A stretch of 64,000 nt of DNA from the NCBI GenBank assembly GCA_051453625.1, contig JBOZIK010000001.1, positions 10,083,351 through 10,147,350 on the forward strand, in the 5' to 3' direction. This DNA comes from Welwitschia mirabilis (taxonomy: Eukaryota). Below, one piece after another: positions 37,677 to 64,000 of the stretch. The notes beneath the pieces are model-generated. The model ran no database searches. It was not told the origin of the DNA and saw only the letters and a list, made by a program, of their open reading frames with translations. Positions within the stretch are counted from its first letter, which is position 1; the number at the start of each line of letters is the position of its first letter. Made by a program: the position numbers and the translations under genes.

Positions 37677-37717
<41 letters not shown>

Positions 37718-37831: not shown

Positions 37832-37896
<65 letters not shown>

Positions 37897-37922
37897 CGTG
37901 TGTGTGTGTGCGCGCGTGCGCG
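37653..37922. repeat. Compound (AT)n(GT)n(GC)n microsatellite spanning an N gap
   Basis: Directly visible alternating purine-pyrimidine tract. Confidence 0.95.
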
Positions 37923-38655: not shown

Positions 38656-39151
38656 GATGTGATTAATTACTTTTTCATAATATTCCTCTACATGGGAAGG
38701 TTAATGATCATTTATGTAATGAAGTAAGTTACTTATAAGGATGAAAAAAGAGATTTTTTGAGGTTTTTTTTCCTTCTTTAAAAATATGAAAGGGGAATTT
38801 ACATATATTGAATATCTTATCATTTTAAATGAGAGCAATGAGATCATGAAAAGGAGAGTAACCTTTTATAATATGATAGGATGGATAAACAAAGATAATT
38901 CATCCTTAAATAAATACTCATATGGAACTGCTTCCTCCCTATTAAGTGAGTCTCAAACATTGAGCTTCCCATAAAGTAAAGCTATATCTTTTTCTAAAAT
39001 GGATGGGTTATTAGAATTAGGAAGATTTAAAACTTTAGATATTAAAGAGGAAGTAATGTAAATGTTGATATCTCTAACCACAATGGATAGAATTTTAAAA
39101 TACTTCTCTTTATCATTTAATAGTTTTAAAGCTATTTATTCTTATAGAAAG

Positions 39152-41799: not shown

Positions 41800-43424
41800 A
41801 TGTTATGGAGCCTCAAATTAGTTTAGTTATTGCATCTATTACTTCCTGATTTCCAGTGGTGTAATTTTATCATGAAAATTTTATGCTATAATTCTTCACA
41901 TTTTGTAACAATCATAATATTGTCCTTGTTAAAAATTCTTAGTGATTTAATTGTGATTGTTAGTGGTTAAATTACTATAACTACTATGCTTTATCTATTT
42001 AACTAGAAAATAGCTTTTATGTAGTTATTGCATGATGAGCATTATTGTTTATTATTGAGATATAAATGCACCCAGTGACCTGGCAAGGAATGAAATAAGG
42101 ATGGCTATCAAATCTTTACCAACATTTGCCACCTCAACCACCCTCCATTATGATGTTTTATCTTCATATTCTCATAACCCTTCGTATTCCACCAAACCTT
42201 AGTTATAAATAATACCCTCTTCCCCCTTTCCTCTCACTTTCATTTTTGGAGAAGCCTTCGCTATCCAACATTGAAGCTTAGATAAGCCTTCAAGCCTTTG
42301 AGCCTTGGAATCTATGGAAGTTTTTGAGTCTTTGTTTTTTTTTGGGTATGATTTTATTATTTTCATTTCCTTGCTTGAATGGTTCTCATGTTCTTTCATT
42401 CCATTCTTGTGTGATTCTCATTTTCTCTTTTATTCCTTGCATGATCCTTATCTTTTACATCTCAAAGAAGTCCTTATTTTGAATGATCTAAATATTTGTA
42501 AAATTCTTCAAAGGTTATTCTTACGTATTGATGAAGTTTGCATGATCTGTATAGACTACATATGCTCTCATGTTAGTGTTGTCTTATGTAGTTGTATCGC
42601 AACCCTTCCCATCTTGTCTAAGTCTTGTAATAAGTTGTTAACTTGACTTGTTTTTTTTATCGACCTTAACTAATGATTTTTAAATAAGGAAACTCAAACT
42701 AGCCAGGGTAACTAGTTGGTTGGACCTTAGGAAGAGATGCTCTCTAAAGGAAGTCACACGGTCATGGGACTAAACTTTAGGATCATTAGGGAAAATGTAA
42801 CTAATTACCATTTGTCCCTCCTGGATTGTGTGCAACTAGATTACCAAAATCGGTTATGGAGTAATAGTTAAGAAAGATAAATTTAAATGAATCTTTGATC
42901 TTTTCTAGTCTATTCTTGATATCCCTTTTTACTTAAGAATCCTTATCATTCCAAACATTATCATGAACCATATTGAAACTGTGAAGGTTACAGTTCTCAC
43001 ACCCTAATGTTTGTATTTAACAAGTGGTTGAGTGGAGCACACAAAAAGCTGATTTGTCTTACCAAAAAGGGCATTTGAGATGTTGATTATTCTAGCTTGT
43101 GCATGAGAAATTGTAAAAATGAAGTGATTTATTCATCCTTGTAACTTGTAATCTATTATATCTTGTGATTAACTTTTGAGATATGATGTCAATATGGTAC
43201 TTGTGCTATCCTAAAAATAAAGAAGTATTTATTTTCTCTTGTATTTAAACACTGTGTGAGTTATTTATCTTCTTTACCTTCAAAGGTTACTTAAGGATGG
43301 GTTTTTGCATGCATATAGATTCATTTAAGAATTGTTAGCCTAAATAATTAATAATAGCATTTGTGAAAGTTTAAGTTCATAGTTTTATGTTAAAAATCTA
43401 GGATGTTACATTTGGTATCAGAGC
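41800..43424 (+). mobile_element. Ty3/Gypsy LTR plus perfect tRNA-iMet PBS; internal coding region absent; related to the 47914-59043 family (5' boundary uncertain)
   Basis: ...ggatgttaCA (43410) is followed by tt and TGGTATCAGAGC (43413-43424). It shares blocks with the downstream LTRs (cacccagtg, cctgg.ttgtgtgcaact, ttatcatg..cc..att g..act). Confidence 0.75.
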
Positions 43425-44763
43425 CTAGGTTATGGTTAAATCGGATCTAGTGAGTATTGTGTAGTATTATTTAGAAATTTATAAATAAATGAGTTACAAG
43501 CTCAATAAACCATAGGGACAAAAGAGACTAGAGAACAACAAAAATGTGGTTTTCCTTTAAGGAATGAAGTCTGAAACCCCAAGAGTATAGGATGTTGATC
43601 TATATGAAAGATAAAATGACCACAAAACCCAATTATCTAAGGTTCATAGAACATGTCATATTTTTCAACAAAATTACACTTCACTATTGAGAGAAAGTCC
43701 TAAGCAAAGAAGAGAAAAACAGGAAGAATTCTAGCTAATCCTTTTAATTTTCCTTTCATTTATTAAAGATTATTTTAGACCAATATATTATACTTGGACA
43801 TCTTCTACCTTCTTTCTCATACTTTTTCACATGAGGGACTTTTTTACGCATTTACTACTGTAGAGGCTATGCAATTTTTCACTATATCATTGTTTTATAT
43901 TCATGTAGAAAGGTTCCCTTTTTATATTTAAAAAAAATGAAGGTTATTGTAACTATTATCTGTATTAGATTATTAATAAGTGATGATAAGGATAAACAAG
44001 TCAAAGTTAAAAATAAAAATAGATTATTAAAATAGCCAACAGGAAGTGAATCTAGAGTCGTTGTAGAAGGCGTTTCACATGAGTGGTTGAGACACTACCC
44101 ATAAGTGGGCGAGTTCAACAATATCAAAACATACAAAATAAACAAGTAAATGCGTAAAGTGGGAAATGGTTCCAAAAACGATATGGGCATTTACCTGAAT
44201 AATCGATGTCATTTGGAAATAGATAACTAAAGCATGATTTTTCCAAATTTATCAGAGGAATTTCGAATGCTGTTGAGAAAGGAAAGGTTGTCTCTCGTCC
44301 TTCTCTGTAACTTGCTTTTAAAGAGGACAATCATGACACTTTTCCAAGCGTTTTCCTTCGGTTAATTTCTAGAATTCTGAGACAAGCAGCTTATTCCTGC
44401 TTTCTTTCCTTTGCTTTCGGCTATCAATAGTATTGCATGCATCATTTCTAGGGTTTCGTCTTTGCTTTCCTCAGTCCTTTTTGTTGCATTGCTAGAGTAA
44501 CGGCCAATGCGGCAATCATTTCTTTTGATGTTGTAGCATCCATTCGACAATTTCTGATCTATGATCCTTCGCGTGTCTGAGTTACTTGATCACGCTTCCA
44601 TTTGCAAGCAATTTAGTTCAATTTTCTAGACTCGTAGGTGATTTTCTTTATTTACTCGATGGTTCTCAGTTTTGATAAATTTCTGAGAATCTTTGTACAT
44701 AAAAGTGCTTGAAAGTCTAGGTTACTTAGAGTAGATGCCAAATTCATCTCGTATCTTCTGCCA

Positions 44764-44948
44764 GTGGATAGTGATGTTAAGCAGAGCCAATAGGGAAGAC
44801 TCTTACACCTCGAAAGTGCAAGAGCGAAGCACTGATACAAGTGGTGTTATAATGCCCTATTCTGCGACACAAGATCGATTTTTTTTTCCCTCCCTTGTTC
44901 TGAGAACTCTCTGTTGTCCCAACTACTTGCGCTTGAGTTCTTAGTTGC
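44764..44948 (-). pseudogene. Captured ARM-repeat fragment (plant U-box/ARM family)
   Basis: KNRSCVAE*GIITPLVSVLRSCTFEV*ESSLLALLNITIH matches the PUB ARM consensus NRxxIAExGAIPxLVxLLxS.....QExAVTALLNLSI. Confidence 0.75.
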
Positions 44949-45355
44949 CTGCATTTCAAAAGGAAGATCATGAAGCCAATGATGCACATTGCTCAAAGGA
45001 AGTTCTTCCAAATTGCAGTATTAAGGCATAAAATACTGTAGCATATCTTCAGTCCACAGCCATTTTTCCTAACTGTTCCACCCTTGATTGAATATTATCA
45101 CTAAATATAGCTGAGAGGGCAAGCGTGATTGCCTGAAGCATTTTACTAAATGAAGATGACATTGTTGACTGATCTATATGCTCCAGTTTTGCAGGATCAT
45201 CTTTAACAGAAGATTCTCTAGTAAGCACTGTTATTATGTAGCACAGGAATATTATAGAAAGAATATCATGCTGAGCAAAGGCATGGAATGCATCTTCCAC
45301 AGACCAGTCACAACGTAGCCTTGTGATATTTTTTGGCACAACATCCCTTCACTTA

Positions 45356-45770
45356 AATGTTCTTCGTAATCTCTTCTACTTTCTTCTGGTATAACTCCAC
45401 CTGTTTAGACATTCTATAGAAGAGTTCCTCAATGACTTCAATCCCAGACTTTCCATATGCTTGACATTGCTTTCTATTAGCAATACCTACCGATGCTTGC
45501 ACTATTGTACAAGTTTCATTAGCCTGCATAGTCCTAAACTCAAACAAAGAACGCAATTTTTTAGCTTCCTTTCCAAGATAAAATGTTGACTCCCTTCTTC
45601 CATATGGCCTAATGGCATAAAGTTCAACAGCAGGCAAGAATGCTCTTGGCACTACCTCAAAGAGCAAAAATCCCTCTTTGGCTAACTCCAAAAATAACAT
45701 GATCTTGGAATGATTGCATAGGGTCTCTAATTTTCTGGACATTATAAAACACAGATAGCCCTTGGGGAAA
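45356..45770 (-). pseudogene. KCBP: Captured fragment of a divergent kinesin-like calmodulin-binding protein (KCBP/ZWICHEL): FERM C-lobe plus start of coiled coil
   Basis: FPQGLSVFYNVQKIRDPMQSFQDHVIFGVSQRGI, then a +1 T-run frameshift, then LLFEVVPRAFLPAVELYAIRPYGRRESTFYLGKEAKKLRSLFEFRTMQANETCTIVQ...IEVIEELFYRMSKQVELYQKKVEEI. This aligns with recalled KCBP LPYGNSVFFSVRKIDDPIGLLPGRIILGINKRGVHFFRPVPKEYLHSAELRDIMQFGSSNTAVFFKMRVAGVLHIFQFETKQGEEICVALQ...EVYEKRLQDLSKAYEESQKKIEKL. Confidence 0.8.
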
Positions 45771-46427
45771 ATATAGAAAATAGTTTCAATGCAAGTCAAG
45801 AAGTTGGCATGGCAGTGCAGAAGCAATCAAAAAATAATGCAGGAGATGTCACTGCTTTTGCCAAACACTAAACCTAGTAATGGGATCAAACAGGGCACAT
45901 ACATGCATAGCCCTGGAATAGCAGAGGGAATTGCTATCAGCAGAAGCAAACTGCATAATTTACCAAACCCAAATACCAAGCTTTTCGAAATAATATTCCA
46001 CTTGAGAGAACCCATAAAACTAGTCATGGTTGGACTGATAATTTTATGATTACTGCAAGAGCCATAACAAAGATCCTTTGGCCCTTTCTTATCTTGCAAT
46101 CGAATAATTACTTGAACGATCTTGAAATCTGCGATGCAAGGATTATCTACTTGAATCGAGCCTGCTATTTATCTTGCTTGAAGTATTGTCTTCTAATAGT
46201 AATAATAGCAAAGGTATATTATGAAACTAGGTGGTTACATCAACTCAGTACCAATCACTCAGACGTCAGGTCTCTAATGGTTATGACATTACTCCCTCCA
46301 CTAAAGTAGGCAATGAGATCCTGCATTATGTCAACCCCAACTCATTAATGGAGATGATTTTTATGAAGTTGTTTTAATGCGCTTTACTTTGCCCAATACA
46401 ACATTTAGGGACAGGCACTAACTGAAG

Positions 46428-46850
46428 TTGTGCATGGAGGGTAAGAAGGTGAATAGGTTGTTAACTGTGTGTCAACTAATTCAAACCCAAGGGGTGACTA
46501 AAGAAGATGGAAACAATTTACATTCGGTTAAAAATGCATCTCTTACTCGACGAAAAACATTGGATGATACTTACTATATCACATATAAAAGATGTTTAGA
46601 TGATGTCAAGCATCCTAGAGATAAATTATTGCATCATTCTGCAAGGTCTAATTCAATATTTGCTTGTGAATTTAGCAATTGGATCTTTGAAGAACAATCA
46701 CCCTTTTTGGAAAGTGTTCTCAAAGGAGAGTTTGCCCTGCGATCATAACAAGTCCAATGCAAATGGTAATATTTTGTTGGTGCTCTGAATTCTAGAAATC
46801 TTGAACCAATTGGCCCCTTGGTTGTATGCTCAAAAATGACACATACTATA
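46428..46850 (+). pseudogene. Unidentified coding-derived fragment
   Basis: 106-aa open frame with protein-like composition (TLDDTYYITYKRCLDDVKHPRDKLLHHSARSNSIFACEFSNWIFEEQSPFLESVLKGEFALRS) that continues through TAA stops (*QVQCKW*YFVGALNSRNLEP). Family not recognised. Confidence 0.45.
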
Positions 46851-47149
46851 GCAAATCGGATGGTTGGTATACATATGATTCCTCACACAGTGTTTTTGTC
46901 AAACAAACTCACTGTGAAATCACTATAACAAATGCAAGATCCTTTGACATTATATAGTCATGAAATGCCTTCATGATGTTATTAAGTAGTTGAGCATGCC
47001 CAATTTTATTTTCTTTTAAGTCAAGGAAATAGTTCTTCTATTCAGTTTCATGTGGTTTATTGTAAGCAATTCATGCATTCCTGCAGTAATAACATTCTAA
47101 AAATTTAAATGTTTTAACTAATAGAGGAGCCCACATTGGTAACACCTGA

Positions 47150-47751
47150 GAGGTTGAGATAGGTCTTAGTCCAACTTTGGAGTTCTATACACTTCCGAGT
47201 TATAAATTTCAAAAACAGGTACTCGGCTTGTGGAGATCAAATCCTTTGTTTGATAACACTTCTTCAAAAACGAAGGATAAACAATGTTCAAGTTAGAGGA
47301 TACAACCATTGCTGCAAATGAAATGAGTGAACAAGCAAACAAATCTAGAAGCTACGTGCTAGCTCCTCAAGGACTATTTCTTCGACCATTACCACCTAGC
47401 ACTGGATCTTCATTAGGAAGCGCTTTTTTAAGAGTATTATAACTATTTTGACTCCTTGGACATGTTAGCGCAAAAGCTCTCAAGGAGGCATGGTGTCCTA
47501 GTTTTGGAACTTATACCAGCATCTTATAAACTCATACTTGGACATGAACTTGGTTTGTTTGATATCAAGGCTTTTAACCCTAAATTAGAAGCCATCTTGG
47601 AAAATTTGTATCCCCTATTCAACAAAGGCATATCTAGGAAACATCACATAAGTCATCTAATTTGCACATTTGTAATGCAAAGCTTGCTGAACTTTGCCCT
47701 GACTTTACACTTCCTGATTACCCTGATTATATTCTTAAGCCTATAGGGAAA
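47150..47751 (+). pseudogene. UPL3: Captured HECT-domain fragment of a UPL3/UPL4-type E3 ubiquitin ligase
   Basis: EVEIGLSPTLEFYTLPSYKFQKQVLGLWRS...YVLAPQGLFLRPLPP...LF*LLGHVSAKALK...YKLILGHELGLFDIKAFNPKL...AELCPDFTLPDYPDYILKP. Recalled UPL3 reads EVGTGLGPTLEFYTLLSHDLQK..LGMWRS...APLGLFPRPWP...FRLLGRVMAKALQDG...FYKLILGQELDLHD...EDLCLDFTLPGYPEYILRP. Confidence 0.9.
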
Positions 47752-47756
47752 ATCTT

Positions 47757-47913
47757 ATGGTTAATAGCAAACACAACAATCACCCCATTGTTTTCTTCAA
47801 AGTCATTCATCTCTATGACTAACTGGTTCAACATTTGTTCTCTTTCATTGTTTCCCCTCCCAATTTCAGTCCCTTTGTCTTCTAACTAAATCAAGCTCTC
47901 TAATGGAAATAAT
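47757..47913 (-). pseudogene. ftsH: Captured chloroplast type-B FtsH (FtsH2/VAR2-like) AAA fragment, 3' part (Walker B onward)
   Basis: IISIRELDLVRRQR[fs]GTEIGRGNNEREQMLNQLVIEMNDFEENNGVIVVFAINH versus [53 protein letters not shown]. Confidence 0.9.
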
Positions 47914-50900
47914 TGTCACATCTAGAGTTCTGCTAAGGTTAGAAAACCTCCTTAGTTACTTTGATAAATAATTAGATATTAGAAAAACTCGAGTTTCTAG
48001 CTGATAAAAAATAATAGAATCTATAATAAAAGTAATAGTAGAACTAAAGTATTTGCATGATAATATCTTAGAATTTATTAAAAGAATAACTTGGAGTTAT
48101 TATTTTGTTAACTAGATTAAAGTTTCAGTTCATCATGAAGTTTACTGCTGTTTATGCATGATTTTCTATTTGATCTAGTTTAACACCAGATTTCTTGATG
48201 TATTTTAGATTTCTGAAACTACAGCTTGACACTAATTATCTTAACTTTATCTTATTCATGCAATGGAAATTATGTAATTTTAAGTATTAGCTCTTGTTAT
48301 TTGCCTCATGCAGTAAAAATGATTTATTAGATATTGTTATATTATTATTCACACCCAATGGCCAGACTTGGAAAGGAAGGATTAAAGGAACATGAACTAT
48401 ACCTAAACCTTATAATCAGCATTACTGTTAGTTCTCTATTATAGATACTTGAATTCCCCTAGCTATGAGGGTCATATCTTGTAACTTGATCATGTGGAAC
48501 TTGGTTACAAACTAGGCATACATTGGATTTCATTAAGAACAGGTGTCGTCCTTACCCTTCTTTGTAAATACTTTTATGAATTATTCTTGAATCTCCTTCC
48601 TTTGTAGTTGTATCTTGTAAATTCAAATGAATGCAATATTCTTATGATTGTCATGTGTGCGCTAATGTTTTCATAAAAGCTTATAGTCTTTTAATGATAT
48701 CTTGTGAGAGTCCTCTATGAATTTGTAGAGTCAACATTTCATGTGAACCCTAAGCTGTCTGCTTGTTAAATGTTTGTATTGAGTCCTATTGACTAGCCTT
48801 TGTAACCCATACCCATGATCATCTTGTTTGACCATTAACCTTGATGTTAAACAATGGAAACTAACTCCGACCAATGTAACTATTTGTTTGAACCTCAGAG
48901 ACTGATACTCTCTGTTGTGAGTCCTAAGTAACTAGACCGAACCTCCAGAATGAAACGAAAAGATGAATATACAATTATGATAATATTACTCATTCCTGGT
49001 TGTGTGCAACTGGCTTACTTATATATAATGAGACGACACTAAAGAAGATAATTCTAAGGGATAAGCGGTCATGGTTATGTCCTCTACCCTGTTCTTGGGA
49101 ACCTTCCCATACTATTCCTTATCATGGGCCGCATTGGGAACTATAATAGAATTCAGTTTCCATACCACCTATGCTTGTGTAGGAACCAATGCAAGTAAGG
49201 ATGCATGAAAGAGCTAGTGGTTGCAGAGACAACTGGGTATCATTCATATGTTTGCTTCTGTGATTATGTGGATGTTATGTGATCAATTATTGCTTTAGTT
49301 GTTTTGTCATGTTTTAGAAATTATTTCTAGTGAAAGACTCTATGTAAAGATCTCTGTTAGCAAGTTGCTTGATATAATGTAGACCTTTGTCTTACCTTAG
49401 TTATTTTAATAATTTAGCACAAGTGAACGTTCTATTATTTTCTTGGAAATTGCAAAATATTATCTTCCTCTCTCTCTCTTGCAACAGCCATTTTTTTTGA
49501 AATTATATATATGTACTTATTAAAGTTATCATGTACCTTTATTTGGACATAACTAGTTATTTTAAAATGCTGGCAGATTATAAGCATACCTTAACTATTG
49601 TCATTTATATGTTATTGTCAAAATGATCTATAGGATAAATAGTTAAGTTAACTAGTTGATAAGTAACAGGTCTAAGGGTTGGATCCTCTTAGTCATTAAT
49701 TCTTAAATCATTTTTTTTTCACATATGAATTGATGATATACATGTGTCAGTCAATGAATTTTTTGTTTGGCACCTTCGTCTATTAAGGATTTGGCACACC
49801 CCTTTCCTGTGCCTCAATAGTCAGCGTGTCGCTCCTCTCTCATGCATTGCAAGGTGCCTTCTCCCCTCCACTGATGAGCTTTTCTCTACCACCTGCATTC
49901 CCCACAGTGCCTGTCTCCTTATTACTCATGTGTTGCCTTGTCTGTGTCTTTGCTATGCCTAATGCTTGTGAGCCATACCCTTGTCCATTTTCTGTCTGCT
50001 TATGTTCTTCATCACCATCCCTCTTACGTGTTTTCACACCCTTCCTTCTTCTACTGTGGTGCAACCGTCTCTGTGCCAATCTCCACCTTATGCCTTCGCT
50101 CTGCTACCCTCACTCTTGCCCTGTTCTGACCCAGTGTCTTCCACCATTGTCGTGACCTTGCACTCCTCTCCCTCTGCTTCACAGTGCTTCTCCTCACTGT
50201 AGGCCTCTCCCTCCATTGGTACACCCCTTTTGCACCACTCATGTACTATCTCTCATGCAATCCATCACTACCACCCTACACCTTCCGCACTCCGTCCTTC
50301 ATCCACTCAGGCCTATCCATCTCTACTTCACAGACCATTCAGTAAGTCATTGAATAATGGTTGTCCACTATATATATATATAAACATTTGTAACTAGAAA
50401 TATTTTCATCTTTAAGATCACTTTCTCTATAAGTATAGAAAAGTATATGTTCATAGATGATTTATTAGGGTTAAAGGTTGTAGAAAAATCATAATGGTAG
50501 TGTTAAAAGATAACTTGTTCGAAATAAGAATTATGGGTTGGTATGGATCAATCTATATAGCAATATGTATAAGTGGATAAGTAGATGTCGAATATGCTAA
50601 GAGATAAAGGACGATCTTCAAATTTAGTACTACATATGCATTAATAGTTTCTATGTAACCTTAGAAAGATGTAAGAATGGATTTCATTCTTAGATTACGT
50701 TGCTTAAAAAGAAGTAATATCCCACACTAGTTATGATAAATAGACTGGCAAGATAGCATACTTTATTTCTTTTAGTAAGACTAGAGATTCTTATGTGGTA
50801 AATCATTTGTCTAAATTTATTCTTCCATCATGGTTTATATTACATTGACTACCTAATTCCATTACATTTTATCTAATAACCTCTTGTTGACTTATTAAAC

Positions 50901-50921
50901 ATTTAAATCCCAACCGTTATA
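47914..50921 (+). repeat. 5' LTR
   Basis: Runs from tgtcacatctagagttctgc to caaccgttata; colinear with 55940-59043. Confidence 0.92.
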
Positions 50922-50924
50922 ATT

Positions 50925-50936
50925 TGGTATTGGAGC
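50925..50936 (+). promoter_or_regulatory. PBS (tRNA-iMet type, decayed)
   Basis: tggtattggagc, 3 nt after the LTR end; consensus TGGTATCAGAGC. Confidence 0.8.
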
Positions 50937-51019
50937 ACTTAATTGAGAAGTGGATTTATATATGAATTTTATCCTTATATTTATCTTGTTTAGCCTTCTA
51001 ATTCTGGTAGGATTAATTG

Positions 51020-54000
51020 ATGGACCCTAGGAGAGTTGTACTATCTCCCTCTAATGTGAGATCCTTCGTAACCACTATGAATCATCTAGTGGAAGGGCTC
51101 CAGAATAGGAGAGATGGTAGAAATGATGAGGAAGCAACATGAATTTTGATGGTGCACTTTTAGCAAACAAATCCCCCAGTCTTTAAAGGGTCAGATAATA
51201 TAGCTAAAGCTAAAACCTGGCTAATCTCTATTAATAAGGAGTTAGAGCTATTTAACTTCATGTCAGAATAGAGGGCCACTTTAGCTGTGCATTAGTTAAG
51301 AAAAAATATAGCTTTATGATGGAATAAGGAGAAGGAAAAGCCAAATTTTCCTGACTAGCTATCTTAGGAATCTTTAAAGAACAATTCCAAACTAGGTATA
51401 TATCTGAATATTACAAAGATGTCAAGGAGGAAGAATTTTACAACCTTAGACAAGGGTCGATATCAGTATCTCTTTACAAGAATAATTTTATGCAGCTATT
51501 GAGGTATGTAATAGAGATAGCCAACAGTGAAACAGTTAGGATATGAAGACTAGTGACTAGTTTACATCCTGTTATTTAGAGACATATTAGATTGTTTTAG
51601 TTGAGAACATTTGCAAAGGCCTTGGAAAAGACAAGGCTTTCTAAGGAATCCTGGACTAGTAGTAGAAGCTTTTGAGACATAGGGGAAAACTCCCAAGAAC
51701 AGAGGGGAACTTAACTTAGGAAAAGGTCCTTTTTCAGGAGTACAGGAATAGGTAAAGCTAGAGATCAGTATGAAGCTGCTAGGGTGAATAAAATGGAGGC
51801 CAAGAAACCCCAAGGAAGAGGAAAGGCACTGGTGGTACCATCATCTTCTGCTACATGAACAAAGTCATAGGACACTATGACTACTACATGTTATAATTGC
51901 AAAGAACGTCATTTGATTAGGAACTGCCCCAAGAATAGAAGAGAGCAACAGGGTACAATAGATGTCAAGAAACTATATGCATGCATATCTAGGAAAGATG
52001 TTCAACCATTAGTAATCTTGGAAACTATAGGTATTATATTTAATGTTCTAATAAAATTTTATTAAACCCTAGAGCAACAAATTCCTTTATATCTCTTGAG
52101 ATGTCTCAAAGTTTGTTTATTATAGTGCATATCAAAAACAAAGTGGTAGTGGAACTTCCAGATGGTAGTACAATTAGGGTCTTGATAAAACCTCCATTAT
52201 TGATGTTATAATTAGATCTCATATTTTCTAGGCATAATTTTTAATTTTGGAACTGGGTCATTTTGATGTCATCTTAGACATGAATTAGCTTCAAGAAAAT
52301 AAAGCTAAATAGATTATTTTTCTAGATAGGTCATAGTGATAGGAATAAATGGTGAGAAATTCTAGTTACCCATCACCTCTAGCCCTCCTGTAGGAAGATT
52401 GATAAGCAAGAAGCAGATGATGAGATAAGTACACAGACGAGGAACTTTTGGGATAGTTAAGTTTTTATCTTCTCTTCAATCTTAGTCAAAAGTTTTAAAT
52501 ATACTAATAGTAAAGGAATATGTTGATCTATTTCTTGAAGATTTATCAGGTTGCCCTCCAAATGGAAATGGGGAATTCCAGATAACTCTTAATCCTAATT
52601 CAAAAGCAATCTCAAAGGCAATCTACAGGATGTCTCCTATTAAGCTAGCTAAGTTGAAGACTTAGATGACTAAACTTTTGAATAAAGAATTAATTATGCC
52701 AAGCATATCATCGTGGGGTGCACAGTACTATTTGTTAAAAAAAGGATGGAAGTTTGAGGCTGTGTGTGGACTACAGGATGTTGAATAAGGTCGTAATAAG
52801 AAATAGCTATTCCTTGACTTGGATAGAGGATTTATTTAATCAATCAAAGTAAGCTAGAATCTTCTCCTAGGTTAATCTTCAGTCTGGATATCACCAACTT
52901 AGGATCAAGGAAGAATATGTCTTTAAAAAGCCTTCTAAACTAGGTATGAACATTATGAGTTTCGAGTAGTTCTGTTTAGCCTTACTAATACACCTGTAGC
53001 ATTCATGGTAGTGATGAATGATATTTTTAGATCCTACTTGGATGACTTTATTGTGGTTTCCATTGATGATGTTTTAGTGTATTCTTCAAATAAAGAGGTA
53101 CATGAGAAGCATTTGAGGATAGTGTTGAATCACTTTTATGCAAATCCTAATAAGTGTGAGTTNNNNNNNNNNNNNNNNNNNNNNNNNNNNNNNNNNNNNN
53201 NNNNNNNNNNNNNNNNNNNNNNNNNNNNNNNNNNNNNNNNNNNNNNNNNNNNNNNNNNNNNNNNNNNNNNNNNNNNNNNNNNNNNNNNNNNNNNNNNNNN
53301 NNNNNNNNNNNNNNNNNNNNNNNNNNNNNNNNNNNNNNNNNNNNNNNNNNNNNNNNNNNNNNNNNNNNNNNNNNNNNNNNNNNNNNNNNNNNNNNNNNNN
53401 NNNNNNNNNNNNNNNNNNNNNNNNNNNNNNNNNNNNNNNNNNNNNNNNNNNNNNNNNNNNNNNNNNNNNNNNNNNNNNNNNNNNNNNNNNNNNNNNNNNN
53501 NNNNNNNNNNNNNNNNNNNNNNNNNNNNNNNNNNNNNNNNNNNNNNNNNNNNNNNNNNNNNNNNNNNNNNNNNNNNNNNNNNNNNNNNNNNNNNNNNNNN
53601 NNNNNNNNNNNNNNNNNNNNNNNNNNNNNNNNNNNNNNNNNNNNNNNNNNNNNNNNNNNNNNNNNNNNNNNNNNNNNNNNNNNNNNNNNNNNNNNNNNNN
53701 NNNNNNNNNNNNNNNNNNNNNNNNNNNNNNNNNNNNNNNNNNNNNNNNNNNNNNNNNNNNNNNNNNNNNNNNNNNNNNACTATAGAAGATTTATAAAGAA
53801 TCTCTTTAAGGTAGCTTCCTTCTTAACTTCACTGCTATGGAAGAATAATTAATTTGAATGGACTGAATAATGTGATGAAGACTTTCAAACATTAAAGATA
53901 ATCGTTGTCTCAGCATCAGTTTTGAGGATGCCAAAAAATAGGGAAGCCCTACACAGTGTACATAGATGTCGCATGTGATGGCTTAAGAGCGATTTGAATG

Positions 54001-55900
54001 CAAGATGGTAAAGTGATAGCTTATGCATCTAGGCAGTTAAAGAATCATAAAAAGAATTATCTTGTTCATGACTTAGAGCTAGCAATGATTATTCATGTGT
54101 TGAAAATTTGGAGGCATTATCTCTATGGTGAACAGATAGAAATTTGGATGGATTAAAAGAGTTTAGAGTCTATCCATACGCAACCAAATCTAAATCTTAG
54201 GCAAAGGTGTTAGGTATAATTCCTACAAGATTATGAACTTATGATAAATTATCATGTAGGAAAAGCAAATGTAATGGCTAATTCCTTAAGCAAAAGAAGG
54301 CATACTCTCTATAATTTGATAGCAGATAATAAACTACATAACATGATTCTAGAAGCATAATAGAATTTCCCTCTATGCAAAAGAGTTAGAGAAGTTAGGT
54401 TGAAATTATTTACCATTTCAAAAGGTGAATTGATATGATATCTAGAAAAGAATGTGGTCCCTAATGTGACAAGAATTAAAAATCTAATTTTTGAAGAATT
54501 TCATGCAAATAAATATGCTATTCATCTAGGAACTAGTAATATGTACATGGATATTAAGTATTTTTATTGTTAGCCAATAATGAAATTGGAGATAGTTGAT
54601 TATGTAACTAAGTGTATGACTTGTTAGTTAGTCATGGCTAAGAATAGACACCTAGCAGGACTTCTTTATCCTCATAAGGTTCTAGAGTGGAAATGGAAAA
54701 ACCATAGGCATGGACTTTATTATAGGTTTGCCTAAGACCAAAGAAGGATATGATTCTATTTTTGTCATTGTGAATCTTTTAATGAATAGTGCACATTTCT
54801 ATCTAGTGAAGACAACAAATATGACTGAGTGAATTACAAGGAAGTATGTCAAAAATATTACTAAATTGCATGGAATTCCTAAGGTAATAATTTCAGATAT
54901 AGATAGTAAATTCACATCCAGATTTTAGACCATCTTTGATAAGGAATTAAATATGGAGCTAAATTTGAGTACATCTTTCCATCCTCAAACCGATGGGTAG
55001 ACTGAAAGAATGAATCAAATATTAGAGGAATTGTTAAGAATGATTACTCTAAACTTCGAAGAGTCATGGATAGATCATTTGCCATTAGTGGAGTTTACTT
55101 ATTATAATAGTTAACAAGAATCTATTGGATATGCACCATTTGAAGCCCTATATGGAAGGGTATATAGGACCCCATCTTCTCAGTTTGATGCAGTAGACAA
55201 AAGGCTATTGCAAGTTCCATCCACTCAACATTTAGAAGAAAGAATTGGACAAATCAAAAAAAAAACTTCAAGTAGTGAAAAATAGGTACGTGAGGTATGT
55301 GAATCAATATAGAATGCAACTATAATTTCAAGAAGGCAATCANNNNNNNNNNNNNNNNNNNNNNNNNNNNNNNNNNNNNNNNNNNNNNNNNNNNNNNNNN
55401 NNNNNNNNNNNNNNNNNNNNNNNNNNNNNNNNNNNNNNNNNNTACGTGAAGTATGTGAAGCAATATAGAAGGCAACTATAATTTCAAGAAGGCAATCATG
55501 TATTCCTCAAATGTTCCCCTTCAAAGGAGTGTTTAGGTTTGATAAGAAATAAAAATTAGCTCTAAGATTTATTGGACCTTATCAGGTAATTAGAAGAGTT
55601 GGGCCTATGACTTATGGGTTAGTCTTACCACCTCATTTATCCATGTTACATAATGTCTTCCATGTATTATTGTTGCAGAAATGTATCTCGGATGAGATGA
55701 AGATCATTCTAGATTAAGATATTACCATCCTTCTTGATTGTTCTATAGAATCTTAACCAGTGAAATTACTCGACCAAAAGGAGATGACACTTTAGGGAAA
55801 AATAGATAAGTTACATAAAGTCAAGTGATCAGACCAGATAGAAGATGAAGCGATATGGGAGATGAAGGATGATATCTTATAGTGGAAACCTAAGTTACTA
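51020..55900 (+). pseudogene. gag-pol of the chromovirus element (many stops/frameshifts, two N gaps)
   Basis: NPPVFKGS (gag); CYNCKERHLIRNCPK (Zn knuckle, ~51890); LNPRATNSFIS (protease, ~52062); [24 protein letters not shown] and VSIDDVLVYS (RT); [10 protein letters not shown] and HDLELA (RH); HPQTDG*TERMNQ and RFIGPY (INT); chromodomain-like LLDQKEMTL...EAIWE (~55765-55860). Confidence 0.92.
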
Positions 55901-55925
55901 GCATGTTTTCAAAAAGAAACCTCTT

Positions 55926-55937
55926 AAGGGGAAGAGA
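55926..55937 (+). promoter_or_regulatory. Polypurine tract
   Basis: aaggggaagaga immediately before the 3' LTR. Confidence 0.85.
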
Positions 55938-55939
55938 TT

Positions 55940-58900
55940 TATCATGTTCAGAGTTTTGCTAAGTTTAGAAAACCTTCTTAGTTACTTTGATAAATAATTA
56001 TATATTAGAAATTACTAATAATAAATAACTCTAGTTTCTAGTTGATAAAAAAATAATAGAATCTGTAATAAAAGTAATAGTAGAACTAAAGTATTTACAT
56101 GATAATATCTTAGAATTTATCGAAAGAATAACTTGGAGTTATTATTTTATTAGATAGATTAAAGTTTTAGTTCATTATGGAGTTTGCTACTAATTATACA
56201 TGATTTTCTATTTGATACAGTTGAACACCAGATTTCTTGATGTATTTTAGATTTTTGAAACTGTAGCTTGACATTAATTCTCTTAACTTTATCTTATTCA
56301 TACAATAGAAATTGTATGTGATTTTAAGTATTAGCTCCTATTATTTGTCTCATGTAGTTAAAATGATTTATTAGATATTGTTATATTATTATTCACACCC
56401 AGTGGCCAGACTTGGAAAGAAAGGATTAAAGAAGCCTTAACTACTTGTAGAAATCTAAACCTTACCATTAGCCTTACTATTAATTCTCTATTATAAATGC
56501 CTAAGTACCTCTAGGTATTAGAGTTATATGTTGTGACTTGATCGTGTGGAGCTTGGTTATAAACTAGGAGTATATTGGATTTTGTTAAGAACATGTGTCA
56601 TCCTTACCCCTCTTTATAAATACTTGTATGAATTGTTCTTGAATTTCCTTCTTTTGTAATTGTATCTCATAAATTTAAATGAATGCAATATTCTTATGAT
56701 TGTCATCTGTGTGCTAATTTTTTGTAAAACCTTATAGTATTTTAATGATATCTTGTGAGAGTCTTCTATGAGTTTATAGAGTTAACGTTTCGTGTAAACC
56801 CTAAGCTATCTTATTGTTAAGTGTTTGTACTTAGTCTTGTTGTCTAGCCTTTGTAACCCATGCCTGTGATCATCTTGTTTGACCATTGACGTTGTTGTTA
56901 AACTATGAAAACTAATTCCATCCAAGGCAACCAGTTATCTAAACCTCAGAGAGTGGTACCCTTTGTTGTGAGTCCTAAGGTAACTGGACCGAACCTTTAG
57001 GATGAAAGAGAAAGATGCATACACAATTATGATAATCTTACCCCCTCCTGGTTGTGTGCAATTGGCTTACTTGTATATGGTGAGACGACACTAAAGAAGA
57101 TAATTCTAAGGGATGAGTGGTCATGTTCATGTCATTTACCCTATTCTTGGGAGCCTTCCCTAACCTATTACTTATCATGGGCTACACTAGAAACTATAAT
57201 GGAATTTAGTTTTCATACCATCTATGCTTATGTAGAGACCAATGAAAGTGAGAATGCATGAAAGAGCTAGTGGTTGTAGAGACACTTGGGTGTCATTCAT
57301 ATGTTTGCTTCTGTGATTATGTGGATGTTATGTGGTCAATTATTGCTTTATTTATTTTATCATGCTTTAGTAATTATTTCTAGCAGAAAACTCTCTATGA
57401 AGATCTGGGTTAGCAAGTTGCTTGATATAATGTAGACCTTTGTCATACCTTAGTTATGTTAAGCACAAGTGAATGTTCTATTATTTTCTTGGAAATTGCA
57501 AAATGTGTATTTTATCTTCCTCTCTCTCTCTTGCAAGAGCTATTATTTTCTTGAAATTATATATATGTACTTCTTAAAGTTATCATGTATCTTTGTTTGG
57601 ACATAACTAGTTATTTTCAATTGTTGTCAGATTATAAGCATACCTTAACTACTGTCATTTATATGTTATTGTCAAAATGATCTATAGAATAAACAGTTAA
57701 CTAGTTGATAAGTAATAGGTCTAAAGGTTGAATCCCCTTAGTCATTAATTCTTGAATCATTTTTTTTCTTTTTTTTAAATACGAACAGATGATAAACGTG
57801 TGTTAGTAAATGAATTTTTTTTTATTGGGGACCTTGGTTTATTAAGGGTTTGGCACCCCCCTTTCCTGCGCCCCAATGGTCAACACGCTCCTTCTCCCTC
57901 ATGCGTTGCAGGGTGCCTTTATCCCTTCACTGAAGCTTTTCTTTTATCGCTTTCACTCTCCACAGTGCCTGTCCCTGGTCATTGCATGTTACCTTGCCTG
58001 CGCCTTTGCTGTGCCTGGCACCTATGAGTCGTACCCTTGTCCATTTGCTGCCTGCTTGCGTCCTTCACTACTGTCCCTCTTACGCGTATTCGTGCCCTTC
58101 CTTGCTCTGCCGTGTTGCAACCCTCCCCACGCTGATCTCCATCCCACGCCTTTGCTTCACCGCCCGTGCTCATGCCCTGCTCCGTCCTAGCGTCTTCTGC
58201 CACTCTCATGACCCTGCGCTCTTCTCCCTCTGCCCCATCGCACTTCTCCTCGCCGTAGGCCTCTTCCCCCACTGGCACATACTTTTCCCACCACTTGCAC
58301 ACTACCTCTCATGCAATCCATCGTTGCCACCCTGCACCTTCCGCGCTTCACCCTCTGTCCACTCGGGCCTACCCATCTCTGCCTCACAGGCCACCCAGTA
58401 AGCTATTGAATAACTGTCGTCAAATACTAAGGCATACTTTAAGAAGAATGGTTAAGCGCATGCCTAATTTCTCTCCTCGTTGATATATATATATATTGAA
58501 ATACTGAAAAGAAGTATTTAAAGGTTTGTAACTAAAAATATTTTCATTTTGAGATTGCTTTCTCTATAAGAACTGAAAAAGTATATGTTCCTAAATGATT
58601 TATTAGGGTTAAAGATCGTAGAAAATTCATAATGAAAGTGTTAAAAGATAACTTGTTCTAAATAAGACTTATGAGTTGGACAAACTAGCAATATGTATAA
58701 GTGGATAAATAAATGTGGAATATGATAAAGGAGGATCTTCAAATTTAGTACTATATATGCATTAACAACTCCTATGTAGCCTTAGAAAGATTGAAGAATG
58801 GATTTCATTCTTGGATTATGTTGCTTAAAAAGAAGTAATTACCACATACTAGTTATGATAAATAGACTAGCAAAATATCATACTTTATTTCTTTTAGTGA

Positions 58901-59043
58901 GACTAGTGATTCGTATGCAGTAAATCATTTGTCTAAATTTATTTTTCCATCATGGTTTATATTACATTAACGACCTAATACCATTACATTTTATCTAATA
59001 ATCTCTTGTTGACTTGTTGAACATTTAAAACTCAACCCTTGCA
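55940..59043 (+). repeat. 3' LTR
   Basis: Runs from tatcatgttcagagttttgc to caacccttgCA; homologous to 47914-50921. Confidence 0.92.
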
Positions 59044-59193
59044 AAAATGTAGGATGCATTTTCCTTTGTTCTCTAAATAGATCTTAAACTCTACCTCTTT
59101 AGAAATGGACTTTGTCAGTAACACTCTATTGAAAATTCTAGTCCTCACATTTGTGAAACTCTCTATCCTATTTAGAAACTCCACAATTTATTC
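59044..59193 (-). pseudogene. ftsH: FtsH AAA fragment, 5' part (internally deleted)
   Basis: IVEFLNRIESFTNVRTRIFNRVLLTKSISKEV..RV*DLFR..KENASYI versus [24 protein letters not shown][..]AKAIAGEAGV[..]RVRDLFKKAKENAPCI. Confidence 0.8.
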
Positions 59194-60379
59194 ACTTGAA
59201 AAAGACAATGATGGGCATTGAATTCTCTATCTATGATAAAAATTTAATTTTTGGGCATTACTAGAGTCATTAAAAATCAAGAATTTTAGAGAAGAGGCCA
59301 TAGGCTGATGATTAAAGGCTGCAGAAGCAGGGGTATTCATATGATAGTCATCAAGAAGGCAACATTTAAAGTTTTGATGAGTTTTCAATTTCACCCACTA
59401 AAAATATTAGTTACTTTATAATCCCTGCAACTCTTCTTTAGCATTACATGTAATTGAACAATTGTGTATCAAACTTCCCTTGTAAATTTCATAGAATCTT
59501 TTAGGTCTTTAATATAAGATGCAGTGAGCCCTACTGTCACAAGTTTCTTTCTCTTGTGCTACAACTACTTAATGTCCATTACATCATTCTTATGCAAAAC
59601 TGTCATCCAAGGTAAAATGTTATTTGCATCCTACTAGAAGAAGCATTTCTTTTAATAAAAGTTTTCTCGTTACTTCTTTTAGAATTAGAAAATGAAAGAG
59701 GAAAAATTTAGGAATGAAAGAGGAAAAAGTTAGGGAGTATCAAATTCTAACAAGATCAATTAGATTGGTTGAGCTACCACTATTTTCTCTTCTAGCTATT
59801 CTTTTTCCTAGAACTTTACTTTCACATTAGATCTTTGAATTTAGATAAGCATGATGATGCACAAGCATCATATTGTATAGTGTTTACCATAATCCAAGAA
59901 AATAACTAACTACAAACTTTAGATTATTCTTGCTGAATGATGTTCATTCTATAGAAAATTAACAAAGGGCTATGATGGATGTAGAGAAATTAAAAGAAAA
60001 ATAGAGAGGAGAAAGAAAGAAAAGAGTGAAAAAATATAAAGTATTCAAAGGAGGTTTTGGTCCTTTTTCAGTGGTAAGTAGTGTTGGAGTGGGCCTCTAA
60101 TAGCAAGGGGTTACATCCCTAAGTGTGAAAAAAGCTCCCACCTTCAGTCTTTAGGAGTCCTCAAGAAGAAGTAGTGTCAAGTTTGTCAAATAAGAATATG
60201 ATACTTCATGAATTCTTATGATAAGTGTTACTTATTGATAGCTTTTGGGTTAAGGTCTCAAGATTTAAGGCTAGTCTCTATTTTTAAGTAATAACCATGC
60301 ACCAAGATCATCTTTTATTATATAGGTATTAACCCTAAGCACAGGGATTTAAGCATTGGGATCAAAACCTAAATAAGAA

Positions 60380-63300
60380 AGAAGGAACTATGAAGTGAAA
60401 ATATCAATATATCATTGTAAGCTTGTATTTCGTGACATTACTATTTTTGGTCTTAACATTACTATCTCTGCTTCTAATAGTTCCTTTTAATTTAGCTAGC
60501 AGCAAACAATTCCATGTATCATAGGACATTGTTAGAGAATAAAGAATTGATACTTTGGAAGATTATAGTTATATCTCACCTTCATTCTAAAAGGGTAAGC
60601 AACTAACAAAGGTAATTTTGAAGATAATAGATAAGGGTGTGTGGAGAGTGGTATTGTCTTAGTATGTTGGTGGATAAGAAGTGAATTAATGGTATGATTA
60701 TATTAACATTTAAGAATTACATTAGGAATCCCTTTAAGTTATATGCATCTTATTCCATGAAAAAATTCTTATTTTAATCTAAATAATGAGCTCTATGTAG
60801 CTTTCGTTGTTTTCCAATAACTCTTTCATACTCACGAAATCTTTACAATAAAGATCTGCTATAATAGTAAACTCTTTATCCAATATATGCTATTTGTACA
60901 ATCATCTTAGGTTTGTGAAGATTATACCTACATTCTCCCAATAGTAATATTTTTCAAATCCTCTTTCACTTTATATATATTATCATATGCAAATAAAATC
61001 ATTTGGTATTATTGTCATTGTAAAGGTCATTATTTATATAGATGTCCAATAAAATTAAAAGATAAGTATTAAACTAATAATGCCAAGAGGCATAGTAGAT
61101 TGGTATATCATTTGTGTAGAATAGACCAAGAAAAGTTTGGGTTCCTAAAGCTAAATTAGACCTCAGAGCAGAGAGTAAGCATGCTTATCACTTATGCAAT
61201 CAATTAAGGCATAACTATTATGTCACAACATAATGCAACAAAGATTAAATTTTCAAAAAGCATGTAAATTTTCAAGGCACTGAAAGATACATCAATTTAT
61301 GTAAGAACTTACAGATCACACTTTGCCCAATCAGGTAAGTTAATAGGTAACATCCTTAACATCTCAACTCCATTACACTTATCTTATGAGTTGAGATTAT
61401 GATTAGATGTAGTTTGTAAAGTTGAAAGTTAAACTATGTGTGTGATCTTTAGCTGCTTGAAGTATTATTGTTATGATTATAATAATCATAGATTCTGTTT
61501 GAAAATCTGCAAAATTTTCTTATAAACATCTCTGGTAAAGATGTTTTGAAATTTGTAGAAATCTTGGAATTAAACATCTTAATTTTTGGAAATGTCTTGA
61601 AAGGGCAAATACATCATTTTAAGTTATTAAATTAGATGTCTTAGTCTTTGTAGATGTCTTAACTGTACTATTATGGAAATGAAAAACACACAAAAATTAG
61701 GGTTTTGACAATTTTTATTAGATAAATGGATCATCAAATCTCATTTTTAAATCTCCTCTTAACATGTGTTGCTCTTAGGTGATTTTCTAGACTTCATTTT
61801 TCTCAGATTTCCATGACTAGATGTCTTGGATTTGTGAGACATCTTAATAGAAAGTAAGAACAAGGGATTTTTCTTAAATAGATGCATATTTTTCATAATT
61901 TCTTATATTTTATTTGATCTTTGGTTAGTTTCTAGCTCTATTTCATAAACATGATAAGAATAAAGATAACAAGATCTTCCAGAGGCAAAGAATAAGCCAC
62001 AGAACAAACCAAATCTTAGTACGAACCTTAGTTTTATTATGAGGCAATAGAAAGAAGATTAGTTTTATTATGAGGCAATAGAAAGAAGATTTAAGACACA
62101 ATCAAGAAACTCCACTATTATAGAGAGAACCCTTGGTTTTTAGAAGAGACACAGAGATTAGATCATGAGCTATATTACTCAGCTTGATTGAGAAAGATAT
62201 ACTTATTCAACTAGTTTAGTCTATTCTTGACCCAATAATAAAAGAATTCTATGCAAATATTTATGAAATTAATGAAAACACTGGTGAATTTCAGACATAG
62301 ATCAGAGGTACAAATTTGCATATTGTTCTAAGTTTTATTAATTCTTTACTTAGTATAGATGATACCAATGTCCCTTTGTTTTATAGTGATTCATTTAGAG
62401 AGATTTTTAGTTTTAGAATTGTCAATGTGTCTCAGCGTCAAATGAGGAATGTTTTATTTGGACACAGTAGAATAATATTTGTTAAGAAGATTGGAAAGTA
62501 TATGATGATTGATGTCTCTTTTCTAAGTTTAGTAACATTTTACACCATTTTAGTTAGATAAGGTAGTTACAGCTATTACAAACCCATGCAAGCTTTCATT
62601 GTATACCAATTACTCACAGGGTTTTAGATAGATTTAGGATTTGTATTATGCATGGATATTATCTTATTATTCTATAAATAGTAGACTTTGGGATATCCTT
62701 ATCTTATCAATTTAATTATTAGTAATGTAGACATTTCAGTGTCATAAATTAACTTCATCCATTAGAAGAAACGATTGGTAGAATTTAGTGAGAAATAGAA
62801 AGCACCTATGACACTAGGCGAAGGCATAAGCAGAAGNNNNNNNNNNNNNNNNNNNNNNNNNNNNNNNNNNNNNNNNNNNNNNNNNNNNNNNNNNNNNNNN
62901 NNNNNNNNNNNNNNNNNNNNNNNNNNNNNNNNNNNNAAGGACACTACAAATGCAAAGATCATTTTCAACTACTACACATAGATCTTCCTTAGTGAAAAAT
63001 GAACTGAAGGCTATTACCAAAATGATTGAGAGGATTGAAAGAAACATTCTAAGGCTAAAGAAACATAGATCTACAATAAGTGAAGGAGAGGCACCGATAG
63101 AGAGTTGGGAATCCATGAGGATTACTACATGGTCATATTTAGAGGAGGAATAAGAAGAGGAGGAGCCAGAATCATTATCTCCATTTGGCATGGAATATGA
63201 CTTAGGCAGAATAACACATAGTGAGTCTTTAGAGGATTTTTTTTGGAGATAAGGCATAGGTGCAATGGGAGTACCAGACTCCTATAGAGGAACATGTGTA

Positions 63301-64000
63301 GAGGAAGCGACAAGCTTCAAGTTCTTCTCAGTATAGGCTTGTACAATAGGAGATTGAGTCTAAGAGCTTAAATGCTCCATCGCTTATCTTTTATTGTCTT
63401 TATTAAAAGATTCAATTTAATAGATCTTCATAGCCACCATTATTACCTTAGCCCTCTTCACCATTACATGCACCTTCTCCACCTCTAGTTCATCCACCAT
63501 TACCTCCATCTTTGCATATAGAGCCCATTTAAATTGAACTAATCCCATCTATTTAGCTTCTGTCCATCTTCACAAAGATCACCATCACTAGCTTCTTAGG
63601 ACTTTTATCACTTCTTAAACATATCAATGCATGAGGAGATAGGACTTTTAAGACCCTAGTAAGACATCATACTACCCCTCTAAGAAGAGGCATACACCAC
63701 CACCTACTTCATCGTAATCTTATACATAGCCCAACTTCACCATCCATGATAGTGAGAACGGTGATGAAGAAGCCAAGGTAAGCAAGATAGGAGTGATTTA
63801 GGTCTCACTAATTAGAGCCTTTCTATTGATATCCAAAAATGGATAGAAGTATAGGAAAAATTAGTAGCAGATCACTTGAATATTTTCGCTTCCAGGATTG
63901 AGGACATGGGATTGGAGCTCTTGATTATGATATCTTGAATTGGATTTAAGAGTGTCATTATTTGTATCATTGATCCCTCCTTGACATTTTGGCTTACATT
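60380..64000 (+). mobile_element. Heavily deleted Copia, possibly Sirevirus-like, remnant with env-like ORF debris
   Basis: Zn-knuckle-like IIWYYCHCKGHYLYRCP (~60998-61048), an RNase-H-like SINLCKN (~61290), repeated a(g/a)acatct/agatgtct motifs at 61525-61845, then ORF debris with *KEFYANIY (~62238). Confidence 0.45.

Follow-up and report, generated by a model that had tools for sequence, protein, structure and literature searches.

What carrier could bring pieces of several unrelated host genes together in one short island is the question raised by a 64,000-nucleotide stretch of Welwitschia mirabilis DNA (GenBank assembly GCA_051453625.1, contig JBOZIK010000001.1, positions 10,083,351 to 10,147,350 of the forward strand), hereafter the window, in which positions are counted from the first base. 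The island in question, hereafter the block, lies at 44040-47913 and continues beyond 59049, on the far side of a nested Ty3/Gypsy element. An original prediction, made from the letters alone, took it for the cargo of a gene-capturing element of the Pack type, possibly of an undescribed family, that was later split by a Gypsy insertion. That the block is a patchwork of unrelated host-gene pieces, subsequently split by a Gypsy element, is supported by the analysis reported here. As to the carrier, there is about an even chance that the block represents the decayed interior of a non-autonomous long terminal repeat (LTR) retrotransposon filled with host complementary DNA (cDNA), in the manner of maize Bs1.

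Nested repeats crowd the window, whose plant DNA is AT-rich and interrupted by nine runs of N. As had been predicted, the block is richer in guanine plus cytosine (GC) than the stretches next to it, with a GC fraction of 0.372 at 44040-47913 against 0.278 at 43425-44039, 0.28 at 36000-41755, and 0.315 at 59049-59737. Its pieces (Table 1) are fewer and, at about 0.2-1.5 kb, longer than the fragments of 150-600 bp first described, and of the four or more donors proposed, three were recovered, namely a UPL3-type HECT ligase gene, an FtsH protease gene, and, with weaker support, an ARM-repeat gene; the proposed KCBP FERM and CBS pieces were not. Judging by the stops and frameshifts in them, the gene pieces are presumably all dead now. 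The predicted absence of a recognizable transposase holds among the Pfam searches of block frames, and no retroelement domains were found by Pfam, either in 43501-47999 translated in six frames or in the 57 open frames of at least 30 codons in 43900-46500 and 59044-59750. The six-frame read-through, which is less sensitive on long broken frames, returned no family at E ≤ 1, and the 57 open frames returned merely two families, both at chance level. Rfam contributed no family within 41000-48200, and no further copy of the block was found inside the window.

Table 1. Features in and around the block, in order of window position
Feature	Position	Strand	Basis
5' LTR (1655 bp) from an LTR retrotransposon family of high copy number	41756-43410	+	Contig depth, loose ends, end sequence
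Primer binding site TGGTATCAGAGC, complement of tRNA-iMet	43413-43424	+	2 nt past the LTR end
AT-rich leader or other sequence	43425-44210	.	High copy number ends near 43469; no Pfam match
Piece of an expressed ARM-repeat gene	44211-45445	-	Pfam Arm, PDB ARM, RNA reads
Segment of 271 codons with one stop (157 + 113)	45353-46168	-	No origin found by database searches
Internal piece of a UPL3-type HECT ligase gene, without introns	46440-47750	+	Protein search, tblastn, exon junction
FtsH AAA-domain piece, part 1	47757-47913	-	Matched residues at 47757-47876
Nested Ty3/Gypsy LTR retrotransposon	47914-59043	+	LTR pair, domain order, primer binding site, purine tract, 5-mers
FtsH piece, part 2	59049-59095	-	Joins part 1 in frame after excision of the Gypsy element and one 5-mer
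Stretch ending in a purine-rich 22-bp tandem repeat, then TATCA	59096-59737	.	No Pfam or PDB match in the stretch

The UPL3 piece bears out the prediction of a HECT domain on the plus strand. Read straight through in one frame, 47150-47746 matched 28 of 419 candidate proteins at E ≤ 0.001 (best 4.5e-9), and these 28 are annotated as UPL3 or HECT ligase and have the Pfam HECT domain. With UPL3 proteins as queries, tblastn gave a colinear match from 46440 to about 47750 (sum E 3e-20 with default settings and 7e-33 with looser word settings), corresponding to residues 4 to about 484 of the protein P0018, or to about 1227-1705 of the 1904-residue P0028. Since colinearity begins at 46440, the stretch 46440-47150, formerly listed among unknown pieces, is also UPL3, and contig ends suggest that the piece starts still earlier, near 46205. 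It contains stops, frameshifts, and a 35-residue deletion, and the C-terminal part is absent; Pfam HECT gave no score on the broken frames, and a 104-residue UPL3 frame had zero matches in PDB. The deletion, of about 35 residues, falls at 47149/47150, is clean, and lies inside a large exon. In passing, the pineapple protein P0007, annotated as a HECT ligase, was seen to contain the reverse-transcriptase domain PF00078, probably because the gene model has absorbed a retroelement.

A single conserved intron position separates capture by way of RNA from capture by way of DNA, and here it points to the retrotransposon route. Metagenome contigs scanned with P0018 provided 19 UPL3 loci, seven of which were examined for introns. 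In four of the seven (L008, L005, L012, and L013), residues 2-411 are encoded in one large exon, directly followed, after the ..FYKL.LGQ codons, by a GT..AG intron of 95-125 bp and then by six further introns; among the others, L002 is intron-less and transcript-like, L020 starts at that same exon boundary, and L009 is ambiguous. The window crosses this exon-exon junction, at about 47544/47545, without any insertion. When window 47517-47565 was compared by blastn, it matched the intron-less L011 and L003 in one piece and the genomic L005 in two pieces about 114 bp apart, while on L008 the match ends at the exon end. A report on the UPL3-group genes of Arabidopsis and Brassica gives 17 exons and conserved intron positions (PMC6562426). 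Because the junction is continuous in the window and interrupted by an intron in four genomic loci, the UPL3 piece is derived from a spliced messenger RNA (mRNA), unless this species lost that intron.

This result bears directly on the carrier first proposed. Pack-MULE, Pack-CACTA, and Helitron elements capture genomic DNA, and the introns are normally kept. Given that the conserved UPL3 intron is absent, these elements fit poorly, and their insertion, with the block as cargo, into an LTR retrotransposon leader is improbable, although the pickup of an already existing retrocopy would still reconcile such an element with the missing intron. Such cargo would agree with the dense packing of unrelated donors in mixed orientation, with the absence of a transposase, with the multicopy state of the block, and with an abrupt fall in copy number near 43469 that resembles an insertion boundary. 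The expected ends, however, did not appear: no inverted repeat longer than 14 nt connects 41000-45000 with 47000-47913 or with 59049-62500, and none was found at the block edges within 42000-62000. In the search for the long terminal inverted repeats of Pack-MULEs, the best inverted matches measured 11-15 nt (longest exact match 14 nt), which is chance level, and a search for inverted or direct repeats flanking the block gave none. Helitron and CACTA ends cannot be recognized in a single copy.

UPL3 homology stops at about 47748, and FtsH homology starts on the opposite strand at 47757, so that the two pieces nearly abut tail to tail, as had been noticed. The FtsH call itself is confirmed by the frame 47730-47885 (-), which matches residues 120-159 of Escherichia coli FtsH at E 4.4e-8; the 15 best PDB matches are all FtsH (E 4e-8 to 1.5e-4), and other AAA proteins follow at E ≥ 0.0047. 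This piece is interrupted by the nested Gypsy element, whose LTRs (47914-50918 and 55940-59043) are 83% alike over 3034 aligned columns. When its interior was translated straight through, with X put at stops, and searched against Pfam, Retrotrans_gag (4e-6), RVT_1 (2e-8), RT_RNaseH (6e-20), Integrase_H2C2 (1.5e-8), and SH3_Tf2-1 (4e-17) were obtained in this order on the plus strand, which is the Ty3/Gypsy order of gag, reverse transcriptase, RNase H, and integrase. A degenerate primer binding site (PBS) for initiator methionine transfer RNA (tRNA-iMet) follows the 5' LTR at 50925-50936, a purine tract stands just ahead of the 3' LTR, at 55940, and two N gaps (53163-53778 and 55343-55442) lie within the element. 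The start of its 3' LTR reads TA in place of TG, and the bordering 5-mers, ATAAT (47909-47913) and AAAAT (59044-59048), are identical at four of five places. It is an old element, and an insertion at these very limits is what the original prediction had described.

The proposed in-silico excision of this element rejoined the FtsH reading frame. With a cyanobacterial ftsH taken from a plasmid record as the query, tblastn covered 71 residues (261-330; 53.1 bits) after excision, compared with 39 residues (46.6 bits) in the unexcised sequence, and among six joins tried, the long match arose in the three in-frame joins only. Because the in-frame match is regained by excision, the Gypsy element inserted within a pre-existing FtsH piece, with a 5-bp duplication. 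A weak additional FtsH match occurs at 59107-59193; about 37 residues seem to have been lost between the adjacent matches, at 59095-59107, a reading that is uncertain, given the weakness of the second match. A possible FtsH Walker-A remnant near 59370-59413 and an intron-like spacer, both seen by eye, gained no search support and were rejected. As a separate observation, TGGTATTGGAGC at window 1909-1920 (+) is a degenerate PBS variant of the nested Gypsy element, and this sequence likeness suggests that another member of the same family may lie at the window start.

The ARM-repeat piece runs in a single frame from 45348 to 44365 (-), in which stops are present and frameshifts absent. The predicted ARM identity on this strand could be upheld for one repeat, at about 44770-44886, by way of PDB, where its matches were to designed ARM proteins (3e-6) and importin-alpha (0.004), and less so by way of Pfam, where Arm scored E 0.008, under the curated cut-off; on these similarities, the putative ARM identity has moderate support. 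A word-indexed protein search with 44725-45348 (-), whose negatives are weak evidence by its own statement, returned nothing at E ≤ 1 among 1894 candidates. The N-terminal ARM repeats of UPL3 itself were considered as the source and rejected, as no tblastn match better than E 7 was seen in 44000-45400.

The segment between the ARM and UPL3 pieces, 45353-46168 (-), had been assigned to the FERM domain of KCBP, an assignment that stands as an unconfirmed candidate: no significant FERM or KCBP match came from word-indexed, HMMER, PDB, or Pfam searches. Specifically, no KCBP FERM was present among 2196 candidates of the word-indexed search, and Pfam offered only IRS/PTB at a sub-threshold E of 0.027. 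When 1.84 billion representatives were searched in full with HMMER, one match was obtained, P0029 (E 6e-4), a repetitive protein with a sub-threshold Root_cap match that was judged spurious as a homologue. In PDB, the 157-residue frame retrieved one unrelated row (E 0.71), and the 113-codon frame at 45830-46168 (-) and the frame at 45959-46306 (+) had zero matches. The length of the 157-codon frame was reached by 10 of 1000 dinucleotide shuffles, its AlphaFold model has a predicted local distance difference test score (pLDDT) of 34.3, too low for a fold search, and RNA reads are nearly absent on 45446-45939. A weak UPL3-like tblastn match (E about 2) falls at 45501-45738 (+). The possible CBS piece on the minus strand was likewise unconfirmed, with no Pfam CBS among the 57 open frames at E ≤ 0.1. 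Two observations concern the same region and its surroundings. In contigs of two DNA sequencing runs (X1 and X5), 98 bases within 45826-45925 are skipped by one contig of each run, and other contigs replace 45523-45637, from which it follows that diverged copies differ by insertions and deletions in this segment. Furthermore, a 52-bp island at 46352-46404 attracts 22-26 RNA reads per loose end per run, whose flanks agree 100% among themselves on both sides and are unlike the window, which indicates a short match to some abundant transcript.

In contrast to the claim that the block has no clear termini, its left side is bordered by one: the high-copy LTR and the perfect tRNA-iMet PBS given in Table 1, about 60 bp downstream of which the block begins. 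The boundaries of the LTR were read from the contigs of X1 and X5, which were placed, together with raw reads of two RNA runs (X14 and X17), on 41000-48400 at 80% likeness. Summed contig depth amounts to thousands over 41741-43469 and to 13-115 on either side, dropping from 4583/4715 in the bin 43223-43469 to 50/95 in the bin 43470-43716; it stays at 23-115 over 43470-47915 and returns to thousands from 47916 on, where the LTR of the nested Gypsy element serves as a built-in control. Loose ends with variable flanks pile up at 41757 (75 contigs in X1 and 67 in X5). The LTR starts with TATCATG.. and ends with ..TTACA, its TG thus changed to TA, as at the 3' LTR of the nested element. The motif TGGTATCAGAGC has its sole perfect match in the window here, and PBS-like matches with at most two mismatches number 8 against 2.6 expected, a count reached by none of 100 shuffles. 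In an account of plant LTR elements, this motif is the tRNA-Met PBS (PMC3852365). These structures point away from an undescribed carrier family and toward a familiar type, the LTR retrotransposon that has transduced sequence of its host.

On the right, 59096-62830 contains nothing recognized by Pfam or PDB except an Athila-ORF1-related domain at about 62232-62712. The frame 59230-59397 (-) had zero PDB matches, 59051-59413 (-) had one unrelated row (E 0.12), and 29 frames in 59700-62830 gave only chance-level families in Pfam. The tandem repeat at 59691-59734 (22 bp, 2 copies, 95%) and the TATCA behind it resemble a polypurine tract followed by an LTR start, but the sequence that follows is unlike the left LTR. 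No second copy of that LTR was found elsewhere in the window, even with permissive scoring, the best match being 80 bp at 66% (E 5e-4; best of the shuffled control 0.066). The 3' LTR may lie beyond base 64000 or may have been lost. As for the domain itself, 62232-62712 (+) matches Pfam Transposase_32 (PF20167) at E 2e-6, under the cut-off, and an N gap (62837-62936) adjoins; in a study of sunflower, the Transposase_32 domain is related to ORF1 of Athila elements (PMC11728184), and the match is probably part of another Ty3/Gypsy element. Further repeats were observed left of the block: LTR-retrotransposon-like direct repeats at about 4665-6573 and 11973-13316 (window 4665-13316), 78-85% alike, with an N gap at 5827-6281; a tandem duplication within 37923-38630 (300 nt, 93%, spacing 408); and, to either side of the N gap 37732-37831, a GT/CA microsatellite (about 37700-37900).

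The block is an old sequence present in several copies. As many as 16 contigs of X1 and 18 of X5 disagree with the window at a single site, and among the contigs listed, copies 83-88% alike from two organisms cover 44174-44925, 45093-45971, and 46201-47649. Several listed contigs cross the junction between the ARM piece and the next segment, at about 45350-45450, and the stretches to which no gene is assigned (43470-44210 and 45446-46200) are also covered by contigs. At 43462, the end of the high-copy leader, begins a contig from organism B that is 87.5% alike, as expected if that copy also adjoins the leader. Multicopy state and junction-spanning copies thus sustain one half of the idea of captured cargo, the other half, a Pack-MULE, Pack-CACTA, or Helitron as its carrier, being the part that fits poorly. 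RNA reads fall on 44211-45445 and 45940-47915 (660 in X14 and 515 in X17), mostly less than 90% alike and mostly as partial fits. The consensus at their loose ends agrees 100% and, at 44435, 44487, 44663, and 44753, forms a GC-richer homologous continuation of the window. The 15 joints listed, out of 321, are all without RNA support. We read these reads as stemming from expressed parent genes rather than from this locus. Changes of A>G plus T>C exceed those of G>A plus C>T (267 vs 175 in X14; 239 vs 127 in X17), which indicates that the window copy has shifted toward AT.

These copies also bear on whether the mosaic could have been assembled in the computer rather than in the plant. Nine runs of N in the window and the fact that none of the contigs listed spans the whole stretch would be compatible with chimeric joins in a gapped draft, but 43470-47913 is free of N, the internal junctions are common to diverged copies, and excision of the Gypsy element restores the FtsH frame. 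Moreover, four runs of one sample, which may be the source sample and is then not independent, contain 0.83-0.86 of the 31-mers sampled from the block, and two runs under a second organism label contain 0.62-0.74; no RNA run is among those listed as containing them. An assembly artefact is therefore highly improbable.

A more serious alternative is that nothing carried the block at all. A chimeric retrocopy or cluster of filler DNA, itself immobile and patched together at one place from reverse-transcribed or repair-copied parts of several genes, would by chance lie beside a truncated LTR element consisting of the 5' LTR, the PBS, and 45 bp, and segmental duplication within repeat-rich chromatin would account for its copies. 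Plants commonly contain truncated LTR elements, the 3' LTR is absent from the window, nested repeats and assembly gaps lie all around, and the spliced UPL3 piece and the abutment of pieces within a few bases in mixed orientation recall repair patchworks. However, copies that are 83-88% alike in two organisms, some of them spanning junctions, resemble a dispersed family more than a few recent segmental copies, a diverged copy has its contig end exactly at the start of the high-copy leader, and the ends of the pieces show neither a poly(A) tract nor a target duplication. We regard this alternative as possible but somewhat unlikely.

Spliced cargo, a 5' LTR and PBS immediately upstream, diverged copies with internal junctions in common, and the absence of gag-pol together lead to the non-autonomous LTR retrotransposon as the reading given about an even chance above. 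In such an element, pieces of an ARM-repeat gene, a UPL3-type HECT ligase gene, and an FtsH protease gene would occupy the interior in place of gag-pol, at least the UPL3 piece having been copied from spliced mRNA. The interior would start right after the 5' LTR and the tRNA-iMet PBS, and its diverged copies would be those seen in two organisms. Host RNAs or cDNAs may have been joined to the element by template switching between co-packaged RNAs during reverse transcription, or by repair of a genomic copy, and proteins of the high-copy family with the same LTR and PBS could have copied the resulting chimera in trans. Only later did the Ty3/Gypsy element insert into the FtsH piece, leaving its 5-bp duplication.

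Several points weigh against this explanation. Simple template switching does not predict that, with respect to the LTR, the UPL3 piece is sense and the ARM and FtsH pieces are antisense, and this mixture of orientations weakens the case, as does the fact that the spliced origin concerns one intron position in one donor, established in loci of other plants. No gag or pol remnant was found on the plus strand of 43425-47913, which fits a non-autonomous element and equally a sequence that is no element. With neither a 3' LTR nor a matching polypurine tract in 59049-64000, the element is not delimited, and the left LTR could belong to a truncated neighbor. The junction between LTR and block in other copies is represented by the start of a single listed contig, which is thin, and summed depth is no copy number; over the ARM and UPL3 pieces, part of it comes from the parent genes. 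A bolder version, in which a chromovirus-like LTR family exchanged its entire coding interior for spliced host-gene pieces, sense and antisense, from at least three genes, yet went on multiplying in two related species, is unlikely. If it were true, the antisense pieces would call for a mode of capture beyond read-through or template switching onto mRNAs, and the transcripts, being in part antisense to FtsH and to an ARM-repeat gene that is expressed, could be a source of small RNAs directed against the donors. For annotation, the block should be masked as a repeat rather than listed as pseudogenes of four genes.

The capture of gene fragments by plant transposons is well known, and in itself the block is unsurprising; its interest lies in the retrotransposon route, which in plants is much less documented than capture by Pack-MULEs or Helitrons. 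Pack-MULE, Pack-CACTA, and Helitron elements are mentioned as carriers of gene-fragment cargo in an article that also covers maize Bs1 (PMC13317346). The block shares with them a dense mosaic of unlinked genes in mixed orientation, the lack of a transposase, and amplification; it differs in the missing UPL3 intron and in that the searches revealed no inverted termini. With chimeric retrogenes and processed pseudogenes made by the reverse transcriptase of long interspersed nuclear elements, the block has in common the spliced origin of the UPL3 piece, whereas it shows no poly(A) tail or flanking duplication and consists of internal fragments in opposite orientations that are multicopy. The large retrotransposon derivatives (LARDs) possess internal domains of conserved non-coding sequence. 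Like LARDs, the block follows an LTR and PBS with a long interior free of gag-pol, which was presumably copied in trans by an autonomous family; unlike them, its interior is a patchwork of host genes, and a 3' LTR was not found in the window.

Closer parallels are provided by LTR retrotransposons that have taken up genes. In rice and sorghum, genes captured by LTR retrotransposons are reported (PMC3726574; cited in PMC13317346), and the likeness lies in host gene sequence within LTR retrotransposons, which in plants is reported on a genome-wide scale. The nearest comparison is Bs1 of maize, an LTR retroelement that carries transduced segments of three host genes (PMC13317346). By that article's description of Bs1, the two have in common the LTR context, a cargo region devoid of gag-pol, and several unrelated host genes, none of them full length, in a low-copy derivative. 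They differ in that the block is known from its 5' LTR and PBS only, and in that its pieces are decayed and in mixed orientation; no hybrid open frame or chimeric transcript was seen. If LTRs are present on both sides of the copies, the block would be a multi-donor, mixed-orientation counterpart of Bs1, and would offer a case for asking how antisense pieces enter retroelements and whether cargo of this sort draws silencing onto its expressed parents, UPL3, FtsH, and the ARM gene.

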